DNA of 32,000 nucleotides from Candidatus Nanopusillus sp. (lineage in GTDB: Archaea > Nanobdellota > Nanobdellia > Nanobdellales > Nanobdellaceae), in the NCBI GenBank assembly GCA_028275775.1, contig JAPWTZ010000001.1, forward strand, positions 1 through 32,000. The letters are read 5' to 3'. The notes beneath the pieces are model-generated. The model made no database searches and was not told the DNA's origin. It worked only from the letters and a program-made list of their open reading frames with translations. Made by a program: the position numbers and the translations under genes. Shown piece by piece: positions 5,916 through 32,000 of this stretch (position 1 is the stretch's first letter; each line of letters opens with the position of its first letter).

Positions 5916-7331
5916 TTATTTTGTAATTCTTATAATTAATCCATTAGAATATTTAACTCTATCCCAAATTAAATATCTATATCTTAATTCTGCTCTTGGC
6001 AATTCTATATTTTTATATTCTTTTATATCTTTTGCTTCTAATGTATAAGAAATAACTATTTCTTCATTTCTTCTTATATTATCAAATTTCCAGTTTAAAC
6101 TATAATTATTATCTACCTTATAAACTGAAGATGGTTCTACAATTTTATATTCTTTTACTTTTAATGGTCCGTTTACCCTATCTATTAATTTAACCTGATT
6201 TAATGGAAATATACTTTTATTTTTTATATTTATTGTTACATCTATTGTTTCTTTATCCAAATCAATCCTCAATATTTCTTTTGATATTTCTATATTATCT
6301 CTTAAGAATATATAGAATATTATAAATAATATTAGGAGTACTGAAGCTATAATTTCTGCTAATAATAGATAGTTAAAGTTTTCGTATATTATATAAGATT
6401 GTCCTGGTAATAAAAACACATTATATATTGCATATTTAGATCCATTTATATTGCCAGTATAATATTGGTTTGGATAAAATGTAGAAAATATTCCATAATA
6501 ACTTTTTAAATAATATGTATAATTGATTGGATAATTGTATGGATTTGTTATATTTATTATATATTCTAATCCATTTTTAGTTATTTCTATTATTGGGGTT
6601 GTATTTAATTGAAAAACTGTGAAATTTAGATAATATGTATAATTATTTGAATATATTATTAAATGATGTTCTCCTATAGAAACATTATTCGATATAAATA
6701 TTGGAAATTGATATATATTTACTCCCGGACTTAATGTTTCATTATAAAATGCTGAAAAATTAAAATCAGAAGATATATTAATTGATAAATATTGACTGAA
6801 ATTGTTTGGATTATTTATTATTCCTATTAAATATATGAAACTATTTTGAGCTACTGTTGAACTTGATAATTCAAAGTTTATTGATAATGGTAAAATAATA
6901 GTTGAATTTGTTACAATTGGTTGACTATAATATAATACTGGAGTAAATTGGATTATATCCGAATAATATTCTGAGGTAATATTTAGATTATGCAAATATA
7001 CAACTATTTCTGGTATTTGATTAATAAAACCCAGGGGTCTCATATATATTTCTATTTCCTCTAATTGACCAGGATATAAATATCCAGAAACTAATGTATT
7101 ATTTTCTCCTATAATAAAGAACCATTGAGATGATAATGGTGAAATATCATAATAGTATGTATAATTTGTTGGATTATATATATTTATTTCATATATTGCA
7201 TAACTATTTGGATTAGATATATTAATTTGATTATTTATTACTGTTGGATATCCAACTATTGGCTGCTGTGAATAAATTTCTAACATTATTGGTATAATTA
7301 ACATACCCAACAAAATCTTCCTCCAATCCAT
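5916..7331 (-). CDS. Hypothetical signal-peptide membrane glycoprotein (sequon-dense ectodomain, one TM, C-terminal beta-rich domain)
   Basis: 471 aa. There is an N-terminal hydrophobic signal (ILLGMLIIPIMLEIYS), many N-x-S/T sequons, a TM segment (LLLAEIIASVLLILFIIFYIFL), then a ~125-aa domain. No confident family assignment. Confidence 0.6.
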   Translation of the reverse strand: MDWRKILLGMLIIPIMLEIYSQQPIVGYPTVINNQINISNPNSYAIYEINIYNPTNYTYYYDISPLSSQWFFIIGENNTLVSGYLYPGQLEEIEIYMRPLGFINQIPEIVVYLHNLNITSEYYSDIIQFTPVLYYSQPIVTNSTIILPLSINFELSSSTVAQNSFIYLIGIINNPNNFSQYLSINISSDFNFSAFYNETLSPGVNIYQFPIFISNNVSIGEHHLIIYSNNYTYYLNFTVFQLNTTPIIEITKNGLEYIINITNPYNYPINYTYYLKSYYGIFSTFYPNQYYTGNINGSKYAIYNVFLLPGQSYIIYENFNYLLLAEIIASVLLILFIIFYIFLRDNIEISKEILRIDLDKETIDVTINIKNKSIFPLNQVKLIDRVNGPLKVKEYKIVEPSSVYKVDNNYSLNWKFDNIRRNEEIVISYTLEAKDIKEYKNIELPRAELRYRYLIWDRVKYSNGLIIRITK

Positions 7332-7371: not shown

Positions 7372-8172
7372 TTAACTATATATTAAACCTATTAGGCTAA
7401 CTATTATTGCTATACTACCAAGTATATAGTCAATATAATATATCTTTTTACTTTTTGCTAATTTCATTAAAATACCAATAGTTAAATAGCCTACAATAAA
7501 TGAAACAATTATTGCAGTTAAAATTCCATAATATCCTATATTAGATGCTACATACATAATATTAGATTTAGAAGTTAATATAGTTAAGAAAAATGCTCCA
7601 AGAGCTGCTGGTACATATAAAATATATGAAAGAGAAAAAGAAAATTTTGGATCATATTCCATTAATAACATAGTAGATATTGTAATTCCAGATCTGCTAA
7701 CACCAGGTAGAGCAGCAAGGCCCTGTGCAATTCCAATAATTATTATATCCCTTAAATTAAGATCCTTTTTATCCTTTATTTTTATTTTATTTCTTGTATA
7801 ATATATATAAATTCCATCTAAAATAAGTATTAATCCCAAAATTATCATTGGTATTGACGTATTATATGTATTTTCCAATAATTTATCAGAAATAATATAT
7901 AAAGGAGCACCAATCAATCCTGTAAAAAATATTGCAATAATTATATAGTATAACATTTTTTTATCCTTTAATATTTGATATATATCTTTTCTAAAGTATA
8001 ATAGAGCAGAAAATACTGTTCCAATTTCCATAAATAATCCGAATGTATATCCAATATATGGACTAATATTTAGTAAATAATTTGAGGCTATTAGAATTTG
8101 TGTTTTACTACTTATTGGCAACCATTCACTTATACCTTGAATTATCCCCAATATTATTGGATATAAATCCAT
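7372..8172 (-). CDS. uppP: Undecaprenyl/polyprenyl-diphosphate phosphatase (BacA/UppP family)
   Basis: 266 aa polytopic membrane protein with the two BacA signature motifs, SEWLPISSKTQ and PGVSRSGITIS. Confidence 0.85.
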   Translation of the reverse strand: MDLYPIILGIIQGISEWLPISSKTQILIASNYLLNISPYIGYTFGLFMEIGTVFSALLYFRKDIYQILKDKKMLYYIIIAIFFTGLIGAPLYIISDKLLENTYNTSIPMIILGLILILDGIYIYYTRNKIKIKDKKDLNLRDIIIIGIAQGLAALPGVSRSGITISTMLLMEYDPKFSFSLSYILYVPAALGAFFLTILTSKSNIMYVASNIGYYGILTAIIVSFIVGYLTIGILMKLAKSKKIYYIDYILGSIAIIVSLIGLIYS

Positions 8173-9036: not shown

Positions 9037-9351
9037 ATGAAATTTTGTCCAAAATGTGGAAGCTTAATGAAAAAAGAAAATAATTATTTAGTATGTCCAA
9101 ATTGTGGATATAAAGAAAAAATAAAAGATGAAAATTCTTTGTTACTTACAGAAAATATAAATAAATCTTCAGAAATTACAATTATGGAAGAAAATTATAA
9201 TTTATATCCAATTGATAATGAAATTGTATGTCCCAGATGTGGAAATAAGGGAGCATATTTCTGGTCTATTCAAACAAGAGCTGGAGATGAAGGTGAAACA
9301 AAATTTTATAGATGTGTAAAATGCGGATATACATGGAGAGTATATGATTGA
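9037..9351 (+). CDS. tfs: Transcription elongation/cleavage factor TFS (TFIIS/RpoM-type)
   Basis: 104 aa. The N-terminal Zn ribbon is CPKCG...CPNCG. The C-terminal TFIIS-type ribbon is CPRCG...QTRAGDEGET...CVKCGYTW, with the acidic DE hairpin. Confidence 0.9.
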   Translation: MKFCPKCGSLMKKENNYLVCPNCGYKEKIKDENSLLLTENINKSSEITIMEENYNLYPIDNEIVCPRCGNKGAYFWSIQTRAGDEGETKFYRCVKCGYTWRVYD

Positions 9352-9853
9352 AAAAATAAAGAAACTAGTATTAAGAATATTTTTGGGAGATGATTATTTA
9401 AGTGACATATTATTTATAATATTTATATTTATTGTATATTTTATTATTCAAATTGTATATCCACCATTATTTTCAGTAATTGTATCTCCAAGCATGGAGC
9501 ATTATTATTTTAATTTCCAAAGATATGAACAATATAATATTACAAAACAAGAATTTTCTCAATTTCCATATCCAAATGGATTATATGTCGGAGATATAGT
9601 AATAATTTTACCAATTAATACAAAATATTTAAAAATTGGCGATGTAATTTTATATAAAGGAATATCTTTGTATAAAAATGAAGATATTTTTCATAGAATA
9701 GTTGGTTATAATAATAGTAATTTTATAATTATGGGTGACAATAATCCGGGACCAATAATATTTGAAGGAGAAAATAATATGGATCCAAGTAGAATTATTG
9801 GAATTGGGATATTAAGAATACCTTTACTTGGATATATTAAGCTTTTGATTTAA
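9344..9853 (+). CDS. Signal peptidase I, archaeal/Sec11 type (S26B)
   Basis: 169 aa. It has an N-terminal TM, the catalytic Ser box VSPSMEH, the His box IFHRIVGY and a GDNN box. Its start overlaps the tfs stop by 8 nt. Confidence 0.75.
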   Translation: MIEKIKKLVLRIFLGDDYLSDILFIIFIFIVYFIIQIVYPPLFSVIVSPSMEHYYFNFQRYEQYNITKQEFSQFPYPNGLYVGDIVIILPINTKYLKIGDVILYKGISLYKNEDIFHRIVGYNNSNFIIMGDNNPGPIIFEGENNMDPSRIIGIGILRIPLLGYIKLLI

Positions 9854-18559: not shown

Positions 18560-19060
18560 TCACGATAGTGTATATCCAGTAGATACTGGATTATCATAAT
18601 AATATACATAAATAGTAGAACCACTCAAAGAAGATATTCCAAAACTATTCATATTAACGGTCATATTTATTTGAAATATTGAATTTTGAGGTATTGTACC
18701 ATTTATATATGAATTACCAGATGATGGATTTGTTATATTATATATGTAACATTCTAAATATCCTTGAGCATTTCCGCTTAAAACTACAGGACATTTTTGA
18801 CTATTTCCGTTGATAGAGGAAAATTCTACTAAAAGATTATTTGCAACTAATTGAGTAGATCCTATATTTTGGGCTAAAATTTCTATATTACCGTTTGAGT
18901 TATTATAAGTTACTTGTAATATTTCGACTTGAGCACCTAGATTTGTAACTTGATTACTTACATAACCCTTTGCCCATCCAACTATAATTGCACCTAAAGC
19001 TACTGTTAGAGCAATTAATATAATTGTTGCAATCAAAGGAGATACAGCTTTTATTTTCAT
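18560..19060 (-). CDS. Archaeal type IV pilin-like protein (class III signal peptide)
   Basis: 166 aa. The N-terminus MKIKAVSPLIATIILIALTVALGAIIVGW matches the archaeal pilin N-terminal motif (K-A/G then VSP[VL]IAT plus a hydrophobic helix). A sequon-rich beta domain follows. Confidence 0.75.
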   Translation of the reverse strand: MKIKAVSPLIATIILIALTVALGAIIVGWAKGYVSNQVTNLGAQVEILQVTYNNSNGNIEILAQNIGSTQLVANNLLVEFSSINGNSQKCPVVLSGNAQGYLECYIYNITNPSSGNSYINGTIPQNSIFQINMTVNMNSFGISSLSGSTIYVYYYDNPVSTGYTLS

Positions 19061-21029: not shown

Positions 21030-21415
21030 TGAGATTTTTGAGATTTAAATTCCTCATATATTTGATTAAAATCTTTATTTCCATATTCTTCTATTTTAGT
21101 ATTTATTTGTACAATTTCTGGAGATATTGTATTTCCCCTAACCAATTTTTTAATCCTTACTTTTTTATTTTTATACCACCATACATATTTTTTACCCATT
21201 CCTTCAACATAATTTACTATTGGAGCACCTTCAAATCCAGAACCACCAGTTATCCTTAATTTATATCCATCTAAATTAATTATTGATCCATCAATTATAT
21301 CCCCAATTTTTTTACCTATTAAAGATTCATCTTTTGTTTGTACTTGAATAGACTTTCCAGTCTTTGGATCTGATACTACAACTTTAAATATAATTTCTTT
21401 TCTCTTGTTTGCCAT
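21026..21415 (-). CDS. rps6e: Ribosomal protein eS6 (S6e)
   Basis: 129 aa. FKVVVSDPKTGKS...GYKLRITGGSGFEGAPI...LVRGNTISPEIVQIN matches archaeal S6e. An ATGA overlap joins it to the kae1 start. Confidence 0.9.
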   Translation of the reverse strand: MANKRKEIIFKVVVSDPKTGKSIQVQTKDESLIGKKIGDIIDGSIINLDGYKLRITGGSGFEGAPIVNYVEGMGKKYVWWYKNKKVRIKKLVRGNTISPEIVQINTKIEEYGNKDFNQIYEEFKSQKSQ

Positions 21416-21458
21416 TTTATATCAATTATGGAAAATATTTTTATTCTTTAATGAAAAA

Positions 21459-21468
21459 TTTTTATATA
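21459..21468 (+). promoter_or_regulatory. Putative archaeal TATA box for the PPase-like gene (leaderless-type spacing)
   Basis: tttttatata is centred about 25 nt upstream of the ATG at 21489, within the 73-nt divergent spacer shared with rps6e. In DNA this AT-rich, such motifs also arise by chance. Confidence 0.35.
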
Positions 21469-21488
21469 ACAAATACTTTAAATTTATT

Positions 21489-21962
21489 ATGAAAGAGCTA
21501 TTACACATTGAACAAGATGACGAATTTCCAAATTTTTTCAATGGGATAATATTAAATTTACCAAATACAAATGCAATAAGTATAATAGATTATGATTTAA
21601 ATATAAATACCTATATGAATTTAAAGGTATCATATCCTTTTTATTTTGGATTTATTCCTAGAACTTATATTGAAAATTATCCATTATTTTTCTCTTTTTT
21701 CTCAGATAAAAAATTTGATATATTTAGTTTACTAAAATTAGAACCACTATACTTTTTTAAAGTCCCAAAAGATATTACAATAAACATAATTTATTCAAAA
21801 TTACCTAGTCAAAATATAAATATAGATAAGGAAAGCATTGAAAATATATTAAAAGATTTCTTTGATGTAGATACTATACCTTCATTATCGAAACCTTCCC
21901 ATATTTTAGAAAATACAAATAGGGAATATAAAAGAAAATTTAGTAAAATTAAAAAATTATAA
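21489..21962 (+). CDS. Inorganic-pyrophosphatase-like (family I PPase fold) protein lacking the catalytic acidic residues
   Basis: The ATG at 21489 is preferred over the TTG at 21405, because a TATA-like box at 21459-21468 lies about 25 nt upstream. YPFYFGFIPRTYIENYPLFF aligns by eye with the PPase signature YPxNYGFIPxTxxxDGDPLD, with DGDPLD replaced by ENYPLF. The assignment is tentative. Confidence 0.45.
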   Translation: MKELLHIEQDDEFPNFFNGIILNLPNTNAISIIDYDLNINTYMNLKVSYPFYFGFIPRTYIENYPLFFSFFSDKKFDIFSLLKLEPLYFFKVPKDITINIIYSKLPSQNINIDKESIENILKDFFDVDTIPSLSKPSHILENTNREYKRKFSKIKKL

Positions 21963-23762: not shown

Positions 23763-24557
23763 TTATGGCCATATCCATCTTCTATATAAACCTTTTTCAT
23801 TTGCAAAATTGTTTGCTTTTTGATAAGATTCTATTGTACCAATATCAAACCAATATTCATTATCATCATTATATACATATCCATATAATTTTTCTCCCCT
23901 TTTTATTAAATATTCAAAGAAATTTCCCATAGAATCTTTACTATAATTAGAATTCATATATTCATCTAATAGATATAATTTCTCCTTTGGAATATAATAT
24001 ATTCCAGTAGATATTGTAGTATATAATGGATTTTGAGGCTTTTCATAAAATTCTTTTATTATATTATTTTCTATTTTTACTACTCCATAATTTTTTGCAT
24101 CATCATAATTCTTTATATCATATACTGCCAAAGCTATAGAATTATTTTCATTCCCCAATTTAATTATTTTATTTAAATTAAAGCTAAACAAATTATCTCC
24201 CAATAATATTAATAGATTATTATTTATGCCCATTTCTTTTATTGCATAATGTAAACCTCCAATTGATCCTAGCTTATTTTCTTCAGAATTTGATGGTTCA
24301 ATTACTAATCTTATTTTTCCAATTTGATATGGTTCATAAAAAGAATATAATGCTGCTAGAATATGTCTAAAATGATTTTCATATTTTTTATTTGTTGATA
24401 TAATTATTTCATCTGAACCTGTTTCTAATGCTTTTTCTATTATATAATATATTAAAGGTACACCTCCCACTGGAAACAATGGTTTTGGTACATAATCTGA
24501 TAAAGGTTTAAATCTCTTAGCAAAACCGCCCGCTAATATTAGAGTATCTAAACTCAT
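23763..24557 (-). CDS. Sugar-phosphate nucleotidyltransferase (glucose-1-phosphate thymidylyl/uridylyltransferase-like)
   Basis: 264 aa. The N-terminal signature ILAGGFAKRFKPLSDYVPKPLFPV is the G-x-G-x-R-x(n)-K NTP-transferase motif. LGDNLF follows. It starts 22 nt downstream of the giant surface-protein gene on the same strand. Confidence 0.8.
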   Translation of the reverse strand: MSLDTLILAGGFAKRFKPLSDYVPKPLFPVGGVPLIYYIIEKALETGSDEIIISTNKKYENHFRHILAALYSFYEPYQIGKIRLVIEPSNSEENKLGSIGGLHYAIKEMGINNNLLILLGDNLFSFNLNKIIKLGNENNSIALAVYDIKNYDDAKNYGVVKIENNIIKEFYEKPQNPLYTTISTGIYYIPKEKLYLLDEYMNSNYSKDSMGNFFEYLIKRGEKLYGYVYNDDNEYWFDIGTIESYQKANNFANEKGLYRRWIWP

Positions 24558-24579
24558 AAAGAAAAATTATCAAAAAAAT

Positions 24580-27500
24580 TTATGAATAAAATAGTTCATA
24601 ATTTCCAAATCCTTGGGGTATAAATGTATTATTTGTAGATATTATATTTCCATTACCTCCTACTATCTTTTCCACAATATAACTATTAGCAGGTGGTAGA
24701 TCAATAAATGTAACATTTCCATTTATATTTCCTATTATTGATATTCCTGCATAATAATTATATAATGTGTTATTTACATTTGTACTAGATATTACACTGC
24801 TTAAACTATTTATGAATCCTTGTGAATTATTATAATATACATTTACACTTCCTGTAGATGTTGTTAAATTATCTATATATCCACTTCCATATATTTCTAT
24901 ACCTAATTGTGAATTATATAATGATATGTTTGTTGCATTACCTGTTAAATAATATCCAAATAATCCTCCATTTGTTGTTACATTTATTATATTATTTGGT
25001 TGGGTTATATATAATCCAAATACTTGTCCTACTTTTATATAATCATTTTCTATATTATTTCCTGAAGATGTTAAATATATTCCAAATATATTTGATTGTA
25101 TATTATTATTTATTATATTATTGTTATTTCCATTGTTTATCTTTATTCCAAATATATTAGATATTACATTACTATTTTCTATTATATTATTTATTGCATT
25201 TCCATCAAAATCTATTCCAAATATTTGTCCATTTACATTTGAATTATTTATTATTACATTATATGGATTATCAATATATATTCCCCATACTGATGATTGA
25301 ATATTAGTATTTTCTATTGTTGAATTTTGTATATAACCATATATTCCTCCTATATTTCCATTTATTGTAGAATTATATACATTTATTATTGATGGATTCT
25401 TTATATTTATTCCAAATAATCCTGAATTTATATTATCATTTATTAAATTTAATTCTCCATTTTCTACATTTATTGCAAATAGATTTGTATTAATATTTAT
25501 ATTCTGTATTGTTACATTTGCTGATTCCACATCTATAACAGGCAATCCTGGATTTGCTGGTTCAAATAATGTATTTTGTCCTAATAATGTTATATTATTA
25601 CCTTGTGGATTTATTACTAAGTTTACTAAATATACTCCTGGAGAGAATACTACTACTGGTGTAGAACTATTAATTGCTGAATTTATTATTCCTTGTATTT
25701 GTGTATTACTTAATGTTGGATTTACTACAGATACATTATATGCATTTTGTGATATATATATTACCTGTGGACTTGTATATTGACTTATTCCATAATTATT
25801 ATATGCATATACCCGATACCATATTGAATAATATCCATTACTACCTAATTTTGCATATTGTTGTAATATTCCATTATATAATATATCTGAACATGAATCT
25901 GCTATTGTTATCCATTGATTACTTGTTTGATTTAATAATTGTATTTGACAATAATCCTGACCTAATGTATTATCATATACATTTGCACTAACTTCTAATA
26001 ACCATATATTTTCTTGTGTACCATTTGATGGTGTAGGATATACATATGATACATTAAACGTTGGTGGAGGTAATGTATAAACATATATTCCAGTTGAATT
26101 TGTTTGTCCAAAGGGATTTGATGTTGATAATTCTATTGTTATATTTCCACCATTTGGTATAATATTATATAATCCTGGTAAATTGTATGATGAATTTTCA
26201 TAATTTAATTGGATAATATTATTACCTGGTGTTACACTTATATTATATGTTTGTCCATTTATTGTTACATTTACATTTGGATAATTCGTATAGAATGATA
26301 TATTTAGTTGATAGTAATTTGATACAGAATTATTAGATGGAGAAATAATATATATTTCTGGATTAACTATAGGAATTACTGTAATTGTAGTAGAATTGGT
26401 AGCTCCATTTGATGCAACACCAGTTACTGTTACACTATAAGTACCCGGTTGTATATTACTATTTGCACTTACTGTTAAAGTTACTGATGCATTTGGAGTA
26501 ACCTGAGTACTTGATAGTGAACATTGTAGATTTGAATTATTTGTAGAACAAGAAAGAGTAACAGATGTAGAGGCTCCACCACTTAGCTGAGTAATATTTA
26601 TTATTGTAGAATTCGAAGAACCAGCATTTACATAGATACTGCTTGGTCCTTGTATAGAGAAGGAATATGGTTGTACATTAACTGTAATTGTAGTAGAATT
26701 GGTAGCACCGTTCTGTGCAGTACCTGAAATTGTTACAGAATATGTTCCTGGAGTAATTGAAGACGAAGCAGTAACAGTTAATGTTAATGATGCATTTGGA
26801 GTAACTTGAGTACTTGATAGTGAACATGATAAATAACTACTATTTGTAGAACAGGATAAGCTAACTGGTAATGGAGATCCACTATTTAATTGAGTAATAT
26901 TAATTGTTGCCGAATTAGAAGAACCCACATATGTATTAATACTGCTTGGTCCCTGTATTGTAAATGAATACGGTTGTACATTAACTGTAATTGTAGTAGA
27001 ATTGGTAGCTCCATTTGATGCAACACCAGTTACTGTTACACTATAAGTACCCGGTTGTATATTACTATTTGCACTTACTGTTAAAGTTACTGATGCATTT
27101 GGAGTAACAGTTGTATTAGATAATGAACAAGATAAATAGCTACTATTTGTAGAACAGGATAAAGTTACTGGTATTGGTGACCCATTATTTAGTTGATTTA
27201 CATATATTGTTGTAGAATTACTATAATTTGTATAAACGTATATACTACTTGGTCCTTGTATAGAGAAGGAATATGGTTGTACATTAACTGTAATTGTAGT
27301 AGAATTGGTAGCTCCATTCTGTGCAGTACCTGAAATTGTTACAGAATATGTTCCTGGAGTAATTAAAGACAAAGCAGTAACAGTTAATGTTACTGATGCA
27401 TTTGGAGTAACTTGAGTACTTGATAGTGAACATGTTAGATTTGAATTACTTGTTGAACAAGATAAAGTTACTGGCAAAGCAGTATTTCCAGTTAATTGAT

Positions 27501-28212
27501 TTACATATATTGTTGTAGAATTACTATAATTTGTATAAACATTTATACTACTTGGTCCTGTAATATCAAAAGTAAATACTGGAAATCCTAATACTAATGC
27601 AGAAACATACTCAGTTGATCCCCCACCTGGGGCAACGTTAAATGAAACCTTATAAGTACCTGGAGCTAAATCTTTACATATCGCAGCGTATACACTAGCT
27701 GCAGTTCCAGAAGATGTTAAAAATAATTGAGAACATCCAGTAGGTAATGTTATCCCACCAATATTACCTCCATTCTTCGTTCCTCCCGAGGATATTAATA
27801 TTAATACTGTCTCATTTTGTCCAGAAACAGTATATGAAACTGTTACTGCACTTCCTCTATTATATGTATTTGTAAAAGTAGTTAAAATAACTGGAACAGA
27901 ATAATTATTTAAAGAAACTCCACCAATTACATAACTTGTAGCTGTAGTAGTAAATGAACATGAATTTGTACTAGAATTTCCAATTACTGCATAACCTCCA
28001 TTATTTATCATTACATTAAAGCTTGGAGTAAGAGTTGAACCAGCAGAAGCAGCAACACAATAATATAAATTTGCTGTAGTTAATGTTATGCTCTTAGCCG
28101 CAGCACTATTACTTCCAACAATGTCTGCTCCTACCTGTGAATATATATTAAATGTAGAAATTAACAATAGAAAACTTACTATAGTAAAATATAGTATTTT
28201 CTTTATTCCCAT
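24580..28212 (-). CDS. Giant secreted surface protein: signal peptide, Cys-containing N-domain, 4 Ig-like ~100-aa tandem repeats, 2 further beta-sandwich regions and a right-handed parallel beta-helix (PbH1-type) domain
   Basis: 1210 aa. The N-terminal signal is KKILYFTIVSFLLLISTFNIYS. Repeats span aa 212-612. aa ~835-1112 show a 22-23-aa periodicity, N..I.....(F/W)GI.(I/L). IQGIINSAINSSTPVVVFSPGVYLV resembles a beta-helix N-cap. N-x-S/T sequons are very dense. There is no C-terminal TM. Confidence 0.8.
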   Translation of the reverse strand: MGIKKILYFTIVSFLLLISTFNIYSQVGADIVGSNSAAAKSITLTTANLYYCVAASAGSTLTPSFNVMINNGGYAVIGNSSTNSCSFTTTATSYVIGGVSLNNYSVPVILTTFTNTYNRGSAVTVSYTVSGQNETVLILISSGGTKNGGNIGGITLPTGCSQLFLTSSGTAASVYAAICKDLAPGTYKVSFNVAPGGGSTEYVSALVLGFPVFTFDITGPSSINVYTNYSNSTTIYVNQLTGNTALPVTLSCSTSNSNLTCSLSSTQVTPNASVTLTVTALSLITPGTYSVTISGTAQNGATNSTTITVNVQPYSFSIQGPSSIYVYTNYSNSTTIYVNQLNNGSPIPVTLSCSTNSSYLSCSLSNTTVTPNASVTLTVSANSNIQPGTYSVTVTGVASNGATNSTTITVNVQPYSFTIQGPSSINTYVGSSNSATINITQLNSGSPLPVSLSCSTNSSYLSCSLSSTQVTPNASLTLTVTASSSITPGTYSVTISGTAQNGATNSTTITVNVQPYSFSIQGPSSIYVNAGSSNSTIINITQLSGGASTSVTLSCSTNNSNLQCSLSSTQVTPNASVTLTVSANSNIQPGTYSVTVTGVASNGATNSTTITVIPIVNPEIYIISPSNNSVSNYYQLNISFYTNYPNVNVTINGQTYNISVTPGNNIIQLNYENSSYNLPGLYNIIPNGGNITIELSTSNPFGQTNSTGIYVYTLPPPTFNVSYVYPTPSNGTQENIWLLEVSANVYDNTLGQDYCQIQLLNQTSNQWITIADSCSDILYNGILQQYAKLGSNGYYSIWYRVYAYNNYGISQYTSPQVIYISQNAYNVSVVNPTLSNTQIQGIINSAINSSTPVVVFSPGVYLVNLVINPQGNNITLLGQNTLFEPANPGLPVIDVESANVTIQNININTNLFAINVENGELNLINDNINSGLFGINIKNPSIINVYNSTINGNIGGIYGYIQNSTIENTNIQSSVWGIYIDNPYNVIINNSNVNGQIFGIDFDGNAINNIIENSNVISNIFGIKINNGNNNNIINNNIQSNIFGIYLTSSGNNIENDYIKVGQVFGLYITQPNNIINVTTNGGLFGYYLTGNATNISLYNSQLGIEIYGSGYIDNLTTSTGSVNVYYNNSQGFINSLSSVISSTNVNNTLYNYYAGISIIGNINGNVTFIDLPPANSYIVEKIVGGNGNIISTNNTFIPQGFGNYELFYS
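24877..25710 (-). repeat. Degenerate ~66-69-nt coding periodicity (parallel beta-helix coils)
   Basis: On the + strand, 'tattccaaata'-like strings recur, being the reverse complement of the (I/L)FGI codons. At protein level there are at least 10 coils of the form N-x-x-I-x-x-N/S-x-F/W-G-I. Confidence 0.6.
26377..27579 (-). repeat. In-frame tandem DNA repeat (4 units of ~300-303 nt, with a 606-nt super-period) encoding the Ig-like repeats of the giant surface protein
   Basis: Read directly from the sequence: 26378-26502 is identical over 125 nt to 26984-27108 (offset 606). 26642-26760 is near-identical to 27248-27366 (offset 606). The motif ggttgtacattaactgtaattgtagtagaattggtagc recurs about every 303 nt. 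Confidence 0.9.
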
Positions 28213-28285
28213 AAGATATTAGGAAACATTGTCCAATATAAAATTATGATTGTTAATAAGCTTAATCATTTATGATAATCGAACC

Positions 28286-28359
28286 CGGGCCCGGGGGGAT
28301 TCGAACCCCCGATCTTCGGGTTAAAAGCCCGACGCTTTACCAGACTAAGCTACGGGCCC
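28286..28359 (-). tRNA. tRNA-Lys (anticodon UUU)
   Basis: The reverse complement folds as GGGCCCG-TA-GCTT-AGTCTGGTA-AAGC-G-TCGGG-CTTTTAA-CCCGA-AGATC-GGGGG-TTCGAAT-CCCCC-CGGGCCC-G. It is 74 nt with no intron and no encoded CCA. Confidence 0.9.
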
Positions 28360-28403
28360 AACAATATTTAATTTATATTTATGATTCTTATATAAATTTT
28401 TCA

Positions 28404-29090
28404 TTATCCATATAAAGATATATAGTTTATAGATCCATTGAAATATTGAAAATAATTTAAATATACTGTTGGATAAATGTTCATTAATATGTTTGGAAGA
28501 CCAACAATTTTATCCCCATTATACAAGTATAATACTGTATTATAATTATTTATAATTAAGAATTTTTCATTTGTATTTATATAAATACTAGAATTTCCAA
28601 TTAAATTAAAATAACAATATAAGAAAGTTCTTGTATATACACTAAAAAATGAAGAACTCAAATAATTGTTGCAATTATAATATGCAGAATTGTTTGTTAT
28701 ACTAATATTCTGTGTTGTTCCATAAATATAAACTTGCAAAATTGATGATACATTTATATTAGAGTTCTGTATTATTTCTATATTGTTTGAACCCATATTA
28801 TAAAAAAACTCTATACAATTATTGCAAATATATGGGTTTGTAGATAAAAATATAACATCGGGAGTATAATAATATGAAAAAGAAAAATCTGTATAATTAT
28901 ATACTATTTGAGGATTATAAAATTGAGAAAAATAAAAAGAACTAATATATAATTTTTGATATTCCGATATTTTATATAATCCAGTAGAATATTGAGATAA
29001 TCCATTGACTATATCTTGATACATATAAACTATGATATATAAAAATACAGCAAGTGTAATTAATACCTCAATCCAACTTTGAGATTTCAT
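28404..29090 (-). CDS. Hypothetical pilin/pseudopilin-like exported protein (TadE/Flp-like N-terminus)
   Basis: 228 aa. After a short polar N-terminus comes [24 protein letters not shown], an I-E-x-hydrophobic helix. The rest is Asn/Tyr/Ser-rich with Cys pairs (CNNC, CNN..). An ATGA overlap joins it to the upstream platform gene. The family call is tentative. Confidence 0.45.
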
Positions 29091-30367
29091 ATTGTTACAT
29101 TAATGTTTTGCTTTTGTATATATTTTTTCCCATTATAATTTAATATTGCTTCTATAATATATGTACCAGTGCTATTTAATTCAATAGATTGAGAATAATA
29201 TCCATTCTGTAATATTTGAAAATTCTGATAAACATAATTTCCAGCCGAATTTATTACATATATTGTTAATGGAGCATTTGTTATTGGTTGCGCATCAATA
29301 TATCCATATACTTGTATATTTATTGGAGTATATACATAAGCAGTTGTTGGAAAAACTTGTAAATTAAATGATACAAAAGAAGGTAGAACAAAAATTACTA
29401 TAGATAACAATCCTATTAAATTATTTATTGCTAAATGTTTTACTGAAGATCTCATTTTTCCACTTTCTGCAATACCCATTATAATTGATGCTGAAATTCC
29501 TACCATAATTATTGATAAAGATGTAATAAATTTTAACCATGAATAATTTATTTGAGAAGAAAAGAAATTAAATGTTGTATGAATAGTAGAAACAGAAATT
29601 TGACTTATTATCAATGGTTTAATTGTATTTAATATAGAAATCGATAATCCAATAAATATAATAAATATAGCATATAAAACCAATATTTGTTGTGATATAT
29701 ATGCTCTCTTTAATCCATCCAATTCCTTTATAGATTCTAAATCATTGTATAACCTTTTTAAAACCTTTGAAATATCACCTCCTCCTTTATATGTTTCTAG
29801 TATTACATAATTAATCATTCTTATATTTGGAAGTTCTTCAAAATACATATTAAATAATGTAAATGCCTTTTCAAATGGCATACCCCAAGCAATCCAATTA
29901 TACAATTTTTTAACTAAAAAAGATAAATATCCTAAATCTACTGAAGATAAATATGCAAGGGCATCTAATAATGTCATTCCAGATGATAAACTTTCAGACA
30001 AATAAGATAAAAAATATGTATAATTATTAGAAATATTTTCATATATTTTGCTTTCAATATACTTGTAAAATAGGTATGGAACTCCTCCTACAAGATATAT
30101 AACTATTATTAATATTGAAAATGTTATATAATTTTCATATAATTTAAATATTATCCCAAATATTCCAATAATTGCTGCAAATAAAATAGATATATATAGT
30201 ATAAACCTATCTTCCTTGATATACGAACCAAAAACATTTATTTCTTTATAATGCAATGGATCCTTTACATTAAAAATTTGATCTATAAATCTTTCAATTA
30301 ATCCCCTTTGATTTACTCTTTTATTATATGTATTAACTATCATTATACTTTTAATTTTGGATGTCAA
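29087..30367 (-). CDS. Type IV filament platform protein (single T2SSF domain; TadB/TadC/FlaJ-like) fused to a C-terminal extracellular beta-sandwich domain
   Basis: 426 aa from the TTG at 30367; the first ATG at 30343 gives 418 aa. The T2SSF-like core is FLSYLSESLSSGMTLLDALAYLS...GMPFEKAF...ILETYKGGGDISKVLKRL, flanked by TM helices. The last ~93 aa after the final TM are beta-rich. Confidence 0.7.
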   Translation of the reverse strand: MTSKIKSIMIVNTYNKRVNQRGLIERFIDQIFNVKDPLHYKEINVFGSYIKEDRFILYISILFAAIIGIFGIIFKLYENYITFSILIIVIYLVGGVPYLFYKYIESKIYENISNNYTYFLSYLSESLSSGMTLLDALAYLSSVDLGYLSFLVKKLYNWIAWGMPFEKAFTLFNMYFEELPNIRMINYVILETYKGGGDISKVLKRLYNDLESIKELDGLKRAYISQQILVLYAIFIIFIGLSISILNTIKPLIISQISVSTIHTTFNFFSSQINYSWLKFITSLSIIMVGISASIIMGIAESGKMRSSVKHLAINNLIGLLSIVIFVLPSFVSFNLQVFPTTAYVYTPINIQVYGYIDAQPITNAPLTIYVINSAGNYVYQNFQILQNGYYSQSIELNSTGTYIIEAILNYNGKKYIQKQNINVTI

Positions 30368-31227
30368 TATTTAAATATATGGCTAGTATACTTGATCAAT
30401 TTTTTAGTGGTATAGAAAAAGATTTATTAGCAATTAATTCTAAAGAAGATCCTTCTAAGTATATATATAAAGCTAAAATATATTCAATAGGAATATCTAT
30501 ATCTATATCAATATTAACATTTTTTTCTCTTTTAATATATAATATAAAAGTATATGGATCTTTTAATCCAATTTTTCCATTAATATTTGGAATACTTACT
30601 GGTATCCTAGGACTCTTTGGATCTTTATTTTTATTTAAGAAATATCCATCAATAGAAAAACAGAATAGAGCCAGAAAAATAGATAATTCTCTATATTATG
30701 CAGTGCTATATATGGCTTCTTTAGTTTCTTCTGGTGCAACTCCAAAAGCATTATTTGAATTATTATCAAAATATAGTGAATTTTCAGAAATAAAAAAAGA
30801 AGCATCTGAAATAATATACTTAATAGATACTGTAGGATTATCATTACCATTAGCATTAGAAAGAAAAGCAGAATATTCTCCGTCAAAGAAATGGGCTTCA
30901 ATATTAAATGGAATGAGATCTATAATAGTTGAAGGTGGAAATCTTGAAGAATATTTATATAATGAAGCTGAGAAATTATTTGATGAATATAAAAGAAAAA
31001 TAATAGAATATTCAAATAATATGCAAGTATTTTTAGAAATATATATTACATTAATAATTGTTGGGGTTATATTTGTAATTATATTAACTACATTAATGGG
31101 ATCTATTTCTGGAACAAACTTTCAATATATAGAATTTCTACAACTAATGAGTATATTAATAATATTACCAATGGGTACAGTTATGTTTATTATATTATTA
31201 AAATCGCTTAGCCCATTTGAAACATAG
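30361..31227 (+). CDS. Type IV filament platform protein (single T2SSF domain; TadB/TadC/FlaJ-like)
   Basis: 288 aa. After two TMs comes RARKIDNSLYYAVLYMASLVSSGATPKALFELL...GLSLPLALERKAEYSPSKKWASILNGMRSIIVEGGNLEEYL, followed by C-terminal TMs. This is the typical FlaJ/TadC half-domain pattern. Confidence 0.7.
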   Translation: MSIFKYMASILDQFFSGIEKDLLAINSKEDPSKYIYKAKIYSIGISISISILTFFSLLIYNIKVYGSFNPIFPLIFGILTGILGLFGSLFLFKKYPSIEKQNRARKIDNSLYYAVLYMASLVSSGATPKALFELLSKYSEFSEIKKEASEIIYLIDTVGLSLPLALERKAEYSPSKKWASILNGMRSIIVEGGNLEEYLYNEAEKLFDEYKRKIIEYSNNMQVFLEIYITLIIVGVIFVIILTTLMGSISGTNFQYIEFLQLMSILIILPMGTVMFIILLKSLSPFET

Positions 31228-31233
31228 TTATTT

Positions 31234-31896
31234 TTATTCTATACTAATATTAAGATTGTATATATTTAAAATATTTTGAACTAATTGATTATCATTTATT
31301 ACTTTAATTTCTCCATTTTCTAACCCACTTTTAATTATATCTACAAAATTTCCTTTTTCATATTTTAAATAATTCAAAATTTTCTCTGATATTGAATACG
31401 AAAGATAAATTATCAATGTATTATTTATATTATTTATATATGAAATTGGTATATTTGTAATTCCTTTACTAGTAAATACAAAAGCTCCACAAGAGTTATT
31501 TATACATAATATAAATGAATATTGAGGATACATAATATTTAATTTTGTATAATATAATTCATAATTTTCCATGTATAAAGAATTATTTAATAAATAACTA
31601 TCTACCTTATTAATAAATTCTATAGAAGTATTTGGATTACTAAAATTAAGATTTTTTGGATTAAATACACCATTTATCGACATCTTAATTATATCATAAG
31701 TTGTTAGATTTAGTTCATAATATCCAATTTCAGTCTCATTATCTGAAATATTATAAATATATGGTAATTTAAGAGAATATATTGGATAAAATAGATATCT
31801 ATAGATTATTGATGCAAAGATCATAAAAATTGAAAATATTATCAAAAAAATCAAAATTTTATCTCTAATAGATGACTTCTTCAATATTTCTTTCAT
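31234..31896 (-). CDS. Hypothetical N-terminally membrane-anchored protein
   Basis: 220 aa. The single N-terminal TM is ILIFLIIFSIFMIFASIIY, followed by a sequon-containing ectodomain. No family recognised. It is convergent with the platform gene, with a 6-nt spacer. Confidence 0.45.
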   Translation of the reverse strand: MKEILKKSSIRDKILIFLIIFSIFMIFASIIYRYLFYPIYSLKLPYIYNISDNETEIGYYELNLTTYDIIKMSINGVFNPKNLNFSNPNTSIEFINKVDSYLLNNSLYMENYELYYTKLNIMYPQYSFILCINNSCGAFVFTSKGITNIPISYINNINNTLIIYLSYSISEKILNYLKYEKGNFVDIIKSGLENGEIKVINDNQLVQNILNIYNLNISIE

Positions 31897-32000
31897 AATT
31901 ATATATTTCTTCTGGCCTAAATATTATAGATATCTCTCTTTCTGCATCTTTTTCAGTTTCTGATGCATGAACAACATTTCTTAAAACCATCTTATTCCAA
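31865..32000 (-). CDS. ndk: Nucleoside diphosphate kinase, C-terminal fragment (gene continues beyond the window end)
   Basis: My own translation of the minus strand gives ...WNKMVLRNVVHASETEKDAEREISIIFRPEEIYNYERNIEEVIY*. The N-x-x-H-[GA]-S-[DE]...A-x-R-E-I-x-x-F-F pattern is the NDK active-site His region. The stop at 31865-31867 lies 32 nt inside the downstream gene. Confidence 0.6.
   Translation of the reverse strand, partial: WNKMVLRNVVHASETEKDAEREISIIFRPEEIYNYERNIEEVIY

Follow-up and report, generated by a model that had tools for sequence, protein, structure and literature searches.

The window analyzed here is a 32,000-nucleotide (nt) stretch from Candidatus Nanopusillus sp. (contig JAPWTZ010000001.1, positions 1 to 32,000; G+C content ~23%), which contains between positions 23763 and 31896 six open reading frames (ORFs), denoted A-F, and a gene for tRNA-Lys. 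A first-pass annotation, made from the sequence alone, had presented this region as a cell-surface island composed of a giant secreted protein, a sugar-activating enzyme and a type IV filament-like module, and all six ORFs, the tRNA gene and the gap of 22 nt between B and A were recovered where it had placed them (Table 1). Our main subject is the genes E, D and C, predicted to encode two halves of a type IV pilus platform and a pilin-like protein. Protein families were assigned with Pfam and NCBIfam profiles, the tRNA was identified with ARAGORN, and the homologous loci used for comparison are labeled L001-L079. L001, a 13-kb contig from a Joint Genome Institute (JGI) hot-spring metagenome, is 100% identical to positions 27248-32000 of the window and adds 8.3 kb past its end; gene calls on this contig agree with the first-pass annotation that ndk is the next gene after F.

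Table 1. Positions of the genes and other features of the window discussed in the text.
Feature	Position	Strand	Description
A	23763-24557	-	264 aa; predicted sugar-1-phosphate nucleotidyltransferase, catalytic domain only; NTP_transferase (PF00483)
B	24580-28212	-	1210 aa; probable Sec-secreted surface glycoprotein, Ig-like repeats and beta-helix
Tandem array inside B	26378-27559	-	TRF; 3.9 copies of 303 nt, i.e. 4 units of 101 aa
Beta-helix region of B	25102-25524	-	aa 897-1037; Pfam Beta_helix, 22-residue periodicity
tRNA-Lys(UUU)	28285-28360	-	ARAGORN
C	28404-29090	-	228-aa pilin-like protein, predicted class III signal
D	29087-30343 (ATG; alternative TTG 30367)	-	predicted platform half, C-half-like, T2SSF
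C-terminal Ig-like beta-sandwich extension of D	29090-29410	-	weak Pfam matches; predicted extracellular
E	30361-31227	+	predicted platform half, N-half-like, T2SSF
F	31234-31896	-	N-terminally anchored extracytoplasmic protein, 2 conserved Cys
PilA-like archaeal type IV pilin	18560-19060	-	Pilin_N; outside the 8-kb region
Sequon-rich secreted protein	5916-7331	-	471 aa
BacA/UppP	7372-8172		
Type I signal peptidase-like ORF	9344-9853	+	169 aa
ORF between S6e and aIF5B	21405-21962	+	185 aa, TTG start

The products of E and D are both recognized by the Pfam T2SSF profile (PF00482) above its cutoff (1.8e-16 and 6.9e-14, respectively), and each contains a single copy of the domain, with ~4 transmembrane (TM) helices in E and ~5 in D. 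Comparison with the NCBIfam ArlJ models revealed that they correspond to complementary halves: E aligns to positions 12-248 of 555 of NF004704 (the N half) and D to positions 188-453 of 465 of NF004705 (the C half), neither reaching the equivalog score (94 bits vs a cutoff of 550 for E, 57 bits vs a cutoff of 400 for D). No sequence homologues of E or D were found in the PDB. The homologues of E number 85, the nearest being those from Nanopusillus, YN1 and Nanobdella, with protein identity of 94% to Ca. Nanopusillus acidilobi 7A (CP010514.1) and 90-93% to several Nanopusillus metagenome-assembled genomes (MAGs) and Nanobsidianus stetteri Nst1, falling to 64-69% for Nanobdella aerobiophila, YN1 and a Nanopusillaceae MAG. 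The earlier proposal of two separate single-T2SSF platform proteins thus passed the profile check, and the family and model matches identify E and D as genuine platform halves that together would make up one full-length PilC/FlaJ platform.

Gene D probably starts at the ATG indicated in Table 1, since the gene calls on L001 and several orthologues use the same start, which yields a protein of 418 aa. E and D are divergently oriented, with starts 17-35 nt apart (30344-30378), so that the promoter of each must extend into the coding sequence of the other; E and F are convergent and separated by a 6-nt gap. The C-terminal extension of D (~100 aa) is kept across Nanoarchaeota, including distant orthologues, and is missing from the D homologues of other DPANN, the protein lengths being 418-421 aa and 305-324 aa, respectively. 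The extension exhibits weak Pfam matches to DUF3244 (0.0017) and MG2 (0.006), and the L073 orthologue a weak match to Big_3_5. We predict that it forms an extracellular immunoglobulin-like (Ig-like) domain, which would be a minor new feature specific to this lineage.

C encodes a protein without any Pfam or NCBIfam family, whose N-terminus, MKS/QSWIE (the slash marks the end of the leader), comprises a short basic leader and a Glu residue at position +5 followed by a hydrophobic helix. Within a family whose identity falls to 45%, the first ten residues hardly vary, and more distant orthologues begin with MKGQSWIE, MKGVNWIE, MRGISWIE or MRSAIWYE, the motif being kept down to 32% overall identity; the consensus across lineages is M[KR][GS]/xxW[IY]E, with G or S at position -1. 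The hhalign comparison with the pilin-like gene found downstream of D in other DPANN reported a probability of 54% (E=1.3e-4), and the hidden Markov model (HMM) of the C family matches the gene downstream of D in L013 at 8e-4. We therefore classify C, from these sequence features, as a pilin-like protein with a predicted class III signal; it is probably a minor or accessory pilin, translationally coupled to D, whose stop it overlaps by 4 nt. The first-pass annotation had called C a candidate TadE/Flp-like pseudopilin. The pilin-like character and the class III signal uphold the general idea, but TadE (PF07811) matched neither C nor F even at E up to 1, and a scan for class III-like N-termini in all window ORFs of at least 35 aa returned only C, a second, 166-aa protein and, formally, F, with no short Flp/EpdE-type pilin among them.

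The 166-aa protein is encoded between the genes for enolase and RNase P p29, ~9 kb from C, and was identified as a PilA-like archaeal pilin by Pfam (Pilin_N, PF07790, 2.9e-5, 25.3 bits vs a cutoff of 25.2). Its N-terminus reads MKIKA (the signal part) followed by VSPLIATIILIALTVALGA, and its ratio of nonsynonymous to synonymous substitution rates (dN/dS) is 0.33 in comparison with L008. The HMM of this family matches 24 ORFs in ~20 loci of the Aenigmatarchaeota type (1e-8 to 1e-4), and where this was checked (e.g. L058, L013) the matched ORF stands at the head of the pilus operon described below. It is the probable filament subunit of a dispersed system.

In ~50 loci from Aenigmatarchaeota and other DPANN (L013-L065, e.g. 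L058 on CP070804.1), homologues of E and D, 30-39% and 23-33% identical to those of the window, respectively, are arranged in tandem and in the same direction. They are preceded by an ORF of ~600 aa, which was identified as a T2SSE ATPase in the two loci tested (4.5e-30 and 5.7e-32) and has a weak PilB3_C match; upstream of the ATPase there are two ORFs with class III signals (U1 and U2), plus a PilA-like pilin in many loci, and a pilin-like ORF starting with MKGQ...FEF often follows D. The resulting layout is pilA - two pilin-like genes - ATPase - E - D - pilin-like gene. The nanoarchaeal window resembles it in the pilin-like gene after D and in its 166-aa pilin, which is homologous to the PilA-like pilin of the operon, and differs from it in that the operon is intact and co-directional, with the ATPase beside E; no counterpart of U1 or U2 could be detected in the window. 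Based on the tandem E/D operon of the relatives and on the match of the window's pilin family to the pilA-like gene, we interpret the nanoarchaeal locus as a broken version of the complete DPANN operon, from which the ATPase and the upstream pilin genes have disappeared and in which E has been inverted, with D and C kept together in their 4-nt overlap.

Within Nanoarchaeota, Nanopusillaceae and Nanobdella are collinear over 40 kb (Kae1-S6e-orf-aIF5B-A-[B]-tRNA-C-D-E-F-ndk-L24e-S28e-AglB-GT4-flippase-PfkB), and as this order includes housekeeping genes, synteny alone does not define an island. Inverted E is found together with D, C and tRNA-Lys in every nanoarchaeal locus that is long enough (L002-L012, L068-L070, L073 and L079); L071/L072 and L075/L076 are shorter contigs, which stop within E or just behind it. 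The tRNA-Lys gene is always located just downstream of C or of C-A (L002-L012, L068, L069, L073, L079). In L066 (5373-8389) and L077/78 (5410-8359 in L077), F abuts aIF5B without E, D, C or tRNA-Lys, and both flanks are collinear. Because these four genes are absent as a unit between F and aIF5B in two lineages, E-D-C-(A)-tRNA-Lys behaves, as judged from gene order, as one block, with F staying with ndk. In these lineages it is more likely that the block moved than that it was lost, as tRNA-Lys(UUU) should be indispensable.

The same genes in the same order, with 89-96% protein identity, are present in N. acidilobi 7A (Nps_01895-Nps_01925, CP010514.1; Wurch et al. 2016, PMC4935971) and in Nst1 (Nst1_568-573), from both of which the window represents a different strain or species. 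In the published N. acidilobi annotation, D and E are each named "Flp pilus assembly protein TadC" (arCOG01808), B "uncharacterized secreted protein", A "NDP-sugar pyrophosphorylase", and C and F "uncharacterized"; neither the class III signal of C nor the inverted orientation of E nor the comparison with the DPANN operon was found there. Elsewhere the N. acidilobi genome encodes archaellins together with FlaH, FlaI and a full-length FlaJ (Nps_02340). It also has another two TadC genes, a T2SSF gene with 10 TM helices that forms a pair with an ATPase, and additional ATPases of the VirB11/FlaI family, including the orphan Nps_01175 (PMC4935971). Makarova et al. list three clade-2 ATPases, one archaellum ATPase and one clade-4 ATPase for Nst1, Jarett et al. 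report two type IV pilus systems plus an archaellum and four FlaJ/TadC homologues in Nanoarchaeota, and nanoarchaeal type IV pilus systems are discussed in PMC4858521 and PMC6142677. In the window itself there are no Arl genes, and no T2SSE ATPase was found among the gene calls for the 8.3 kb that L001 adds.

Archaeal systems with two platform genes include the Epd pilus/system 1 of Methanococcus, clade-2 euryarchaeal systems and subsystem 4A of some DPANN (PMC4858521; 10.64898/2026.04.22.720090, a 2026 preprint on DPANN systems that have two such genes). The bacterial Tad pilus (TadB/TadC) has its origin in such archaeal systems (PMC6668835). With the Epd/Tad-type systems the window shares two single-T2SSF genes and class III pilin-like proteins, and in its DPANN relatives the T2SSE ATPase is directly upstream; unlike them, it lacks the ATPase and the upstream pilins at the locus, has E inverted and D extended by an Ig-like domain, and contains neither a Flp-type short pilin nor a TadE-domain protein. 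The arrangement had at first been taken as not described before, a view that cannot be maintained given the TadC annotation of D and E in the sister genome (PMC4935971) and the published type IV pilus and two-platform DPANN systems. We conclude that the locus is a dispersed known system, neither a coherent island nor a new kind of system.

Taken together, it is likely that the region is a mosaic, whose functional unit, inverted E-D-C-tRNA-Lys, constitutes the platform part of a dispersed type IV pilus system. D and E would form a membrane heterodimer equivalent to the full-length PilC/FlaJ, driven by a FlaI/PilB-type ATPase encoded in trans, and would couple this ATPase to the extraction and polymerization of pilins with class III signals. 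The filament could then consist of the 166-aa pilin, C being an accessory subunit; both may be glycosylated by the adjacent AglB cluster, and the filament may serve for the attachment to the host.

Several observations weigh against such an assignment. As the first-pass annotation had stated, neither a secretion ATPase nor a prepilin peptidase is encoded in cis: no window ORF of at least 90 aa matches a T2SSE/FlaI ATPase or an A24 peptidase (PibD/FlaK/EppA), none of these enzymes was found in the nanoarchaeal loci examined, including the gene tables around the F homologues, and the census of Makarova et al. reports no prepilin peptidase in two nanoarchaea. The likeness of C to other pilin-like proteins is confined to the N-terminal 34 residues, its AlphaFold2 (AF2) model (helix 6-45, followed by strands) is of low confidence (pLDDT 51), and a Foldseek search of the PDB with this model returned nothing at E<0.02. 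The AF2 model of F is likewise of low confidence (pLDDT 62), with no Foldseek match in the PDB at E<1; the alignments used for both models are shallow, as both families are confined to Nanoarchaeota. The products of C-F were not detected in the N. acidilobi proteome, though membrane proteins are hard to detect, and neither was B (PMC4935971). Finally, no filament has so far been linked to the E, D and C genes.

On the same evidence one could go further and consider, as a tentative and rather unlikely proposal, that Nanoarchaeota possess a distinct sub-type of type IV filament, with a divergent platform pair, a pilin-like gene and tRNA-Lys in a block whose position shifts from lineage to lineage, an Ig-like domain on one platform half, a shared or borrowed motor ATPase and no recognizable prepilin peptidase. 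If true, this sub-type could be specialized for contact with the host cell.

It is unlikely that D, E and C form a filament-like machine without an adhesive pilus, such as a short pseudopilus, a bindosome-like surface-assembly apparatus or a device for the uptake of DNA or other substrates. E does match the bindosome platform BasF (1.7e-11) and UpsF (1e-5), neither an ATPase nor a major pilin is adjacent, C, at 228 aa, is large and has a globular part with Cys that sets it apart from a typical major pilin, and the extra extracellular domain of D would be unusual for a pilus platform. However, the BasF and UpsF matches are far below the respective cutoffs and reflect the shared T2SSF domain, and the operon of the relatives is headed by a PilA-like pilin, whose homologue is present in the window.

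The remaining genes of the 8-kb region have to be considered before its unity can be judged. F had been included in the filament module as a membrane-anchored protein of unrecognized family; it is indeed anchored and has no Pfam or NCBIfam family, but the gene tracks ndk even where E, D and C are missing. It closes the S28e-L24e-ndk string, an order found in seven further lineages, stands directly after L24e in L079, where ndk is missing, and is found next to ndk whether or not E, D and C are present. The family occurs only in Nanoarchaeota (34 close matches; 12 representatives among 1.84 billion proteins), and its distant members have plain signal-anchor N-termini without the class III motif. 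F belongs to the ribosomal-protein/ndk gene string, and its membership in the pilus module is doubtful. We also considered F as a diverged counterpart of the pilin-like U1 and U2 and rejected this possibility (hhalign <1%, empty HMM searches, and the N-termini of the distant homologues).

The identification of A as a sugar nucleotidyltransferase agrees with its confident match to NTP_transferase (PF00483, 3.2e-41, 141.9 bits); the score is far below every NCBIfam equivalog cutoff, so that the sugar specificity is not assigned. Judging from its family, A is predicted to make a nucleoside diphosphate sugar for glycosylation, and its orthologue Nps_01895 is among the proteins seen in the proteome of N. 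acidilobi (PMC4935971).

B possesses a Sec-type signal, an N-terminal domain, 49 N-x-S/T sequons, and Wzt_C and Ig-like Pfam matches. Its tandem array (Tandem Repeats Finder, TRF, score 1209, 76% matches) corresponds to Ig-like protein units at aa 213-615, and the C-terminal region shows a 22-residue periodicity (N-x-I-x-N-x-x-I-...-F-G-I), with a Beta_helix match (PF13229, 1.8e-5, 24.9 bits vs a cutoff of 25.9) when scanned alone. The description of B as a 1210-aa secreted repeat and beta-helix protein is thereby borne out for the secretion signal and the four repeats, with the beta-helix match 1 bit under the cutoff. The repeat copies vary among Nanopusillus genomes (4, 4, 2, 1 or 0; L002, L003 and L007 among the loci compared), the L001 contig breaks inside the array, and B is missing altogether from Nanopusillus L008, Nanobdella, YN1 and L011 (loci L008-L011). 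B is probably a strain-variable glycoprotein composed of Ig-like repeats and a right-handed beta-helix, which binds or cuts glycans of the host surface.

Giant surface proteins of this type are already known from Nanobdella aerobiophila, whose pectin lyase-like proteins MJ1_0451, MJ1_0701 and MJ1_0776 (908-1320 aa) combine a parallel beta-helix with 1-8 Ig-like folds and carry 36-52 sequons (bioRxiv 10.1101/2023.10.27.564410). The likeness of B to these proteins is one of architecture (1210 aa, 49 sequons, 4 repeats and the Beta_helix match), and B differs from them in its position, a different and variable site beside tRNA-Lys, where Nanobdella has no B. An origin of B as a tRNA-integrated element was not supported, as no integrase was seen, B is separated from A by only 22 nt, and tRNA-Lys and A do not stand in the same order in all genera.

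That A, B, the tRNA, C, D, E and F work together across the whole 8 kb as a single host-contact island around an ATPase-less filament module, as the first-pass annotation had it, seems quite improbable. All six products are related to the envelope or feed glycosylation, A lies directly after C in Nanobdella, YN1, L011 and L079, an N-glycosylation cluster is found on the other side, and the gene order is constant within Nanopusillus, where the tRNA and B stand between C and A. On the other hand, the 40-kb neighborhood is collinear including its housekeeping genes, so that synteny says little; B is variable or absent, A is not beside C in L068 and L073, F accompanies ndk where E, D and C are absent, and envelope genes are scattered over the whole window. 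The mosaic with an E-D-C-tRNA-Lys core remains our preferred reading of the region.

Comparison with five Nanopusillus genomes gave dN/dS values of 0.08-0.15 for C, 0.09-0.21 for D, 0.11-0.17 for E and 0.20-0.21 for F, with 0.08-0.09 for aIF5B, 0.06-0.09 for NDK and 0.13-0.29 for S6e as controls. C, D and E are under purifying selection and are not remnants. The genes of the locus are conserved in relatives, and their values are like those of aIF5B and NDK. The first-pass annotation had named, as a finding that would speak against the module, decayed genes beside a complete FlaJ encoded elsewhere; a full-length FlaJ exists in the sister genome, yet E, D and C show no such decay. It is hardly credible that D and E are decaying and all that is left of a former pilus operon, the archaellum FlaJ doing all the work, for although Nps_02340 and FlaI are encoded elsewhere in the sister genome, the operon is broken relative to that of other DPANN and C-F were unseen in the N. 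acidilobi proteome, the ORFs are intact in more than 15 genomes at 46-94% identity, dN/dS (0.08-0.21) is at the housekeeping level and C has an invariant class III motif.

Outside this region the gene set had been regarded as housekeeping, which is not wholly the case: besides the 166-aa pilin it contains BacA/UppP, a secreted protein and an ORF resembling signal peptidase I. The secreted protein, encoded beside BacA/UppP, is rich in sequons, with a C-terminal TM helix and a cytoplasmic tail; it has no Pfam family and is a candidate surface protein. The signal peptidase-like ORF displays an N-terminal TM helix and SPSMEH...GDNN motifs resembling those of type I signal peptidases, with no Pfam match at 1e-3. 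The 185-aa ORF between S6e and aIF5B has no family either and is found with 48-92% identity in all Nanopusillaceae loci. The N-glycosylation cluster lies beyond the end of the window, just past ndk-L24e-S28e (L001, 5736-12055), and includes a 1192-aa AglB/STT3-like protein with WWDYG at aa 760 (no Pfam match at 0.01), a gene resembling those for GT4 GlcNAc-1-P transferases, and a Polysacc_synt flippase. A scan for bacterial-type promoters and terminators returned 51 sites vs 45 expected, which is uninformative for an archaeal genome.

The means by which nanoarchaea adhere to their hosts and feed on them are an unsolved problem, with surface filaments and giant glycoproteins as the prime candidates. 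The analysis raises the questions of which of the scattered ATPases drives the split platform, and how class III signals are cleaved where a prepilin peptidase has not been found. It narrows the candidate set at this locus to the core of E, D and C plus the distant pilin, and offers an evolutionary path in which a complete DPANN pilus operon would have been dismantled in the course of genome shrinkage.

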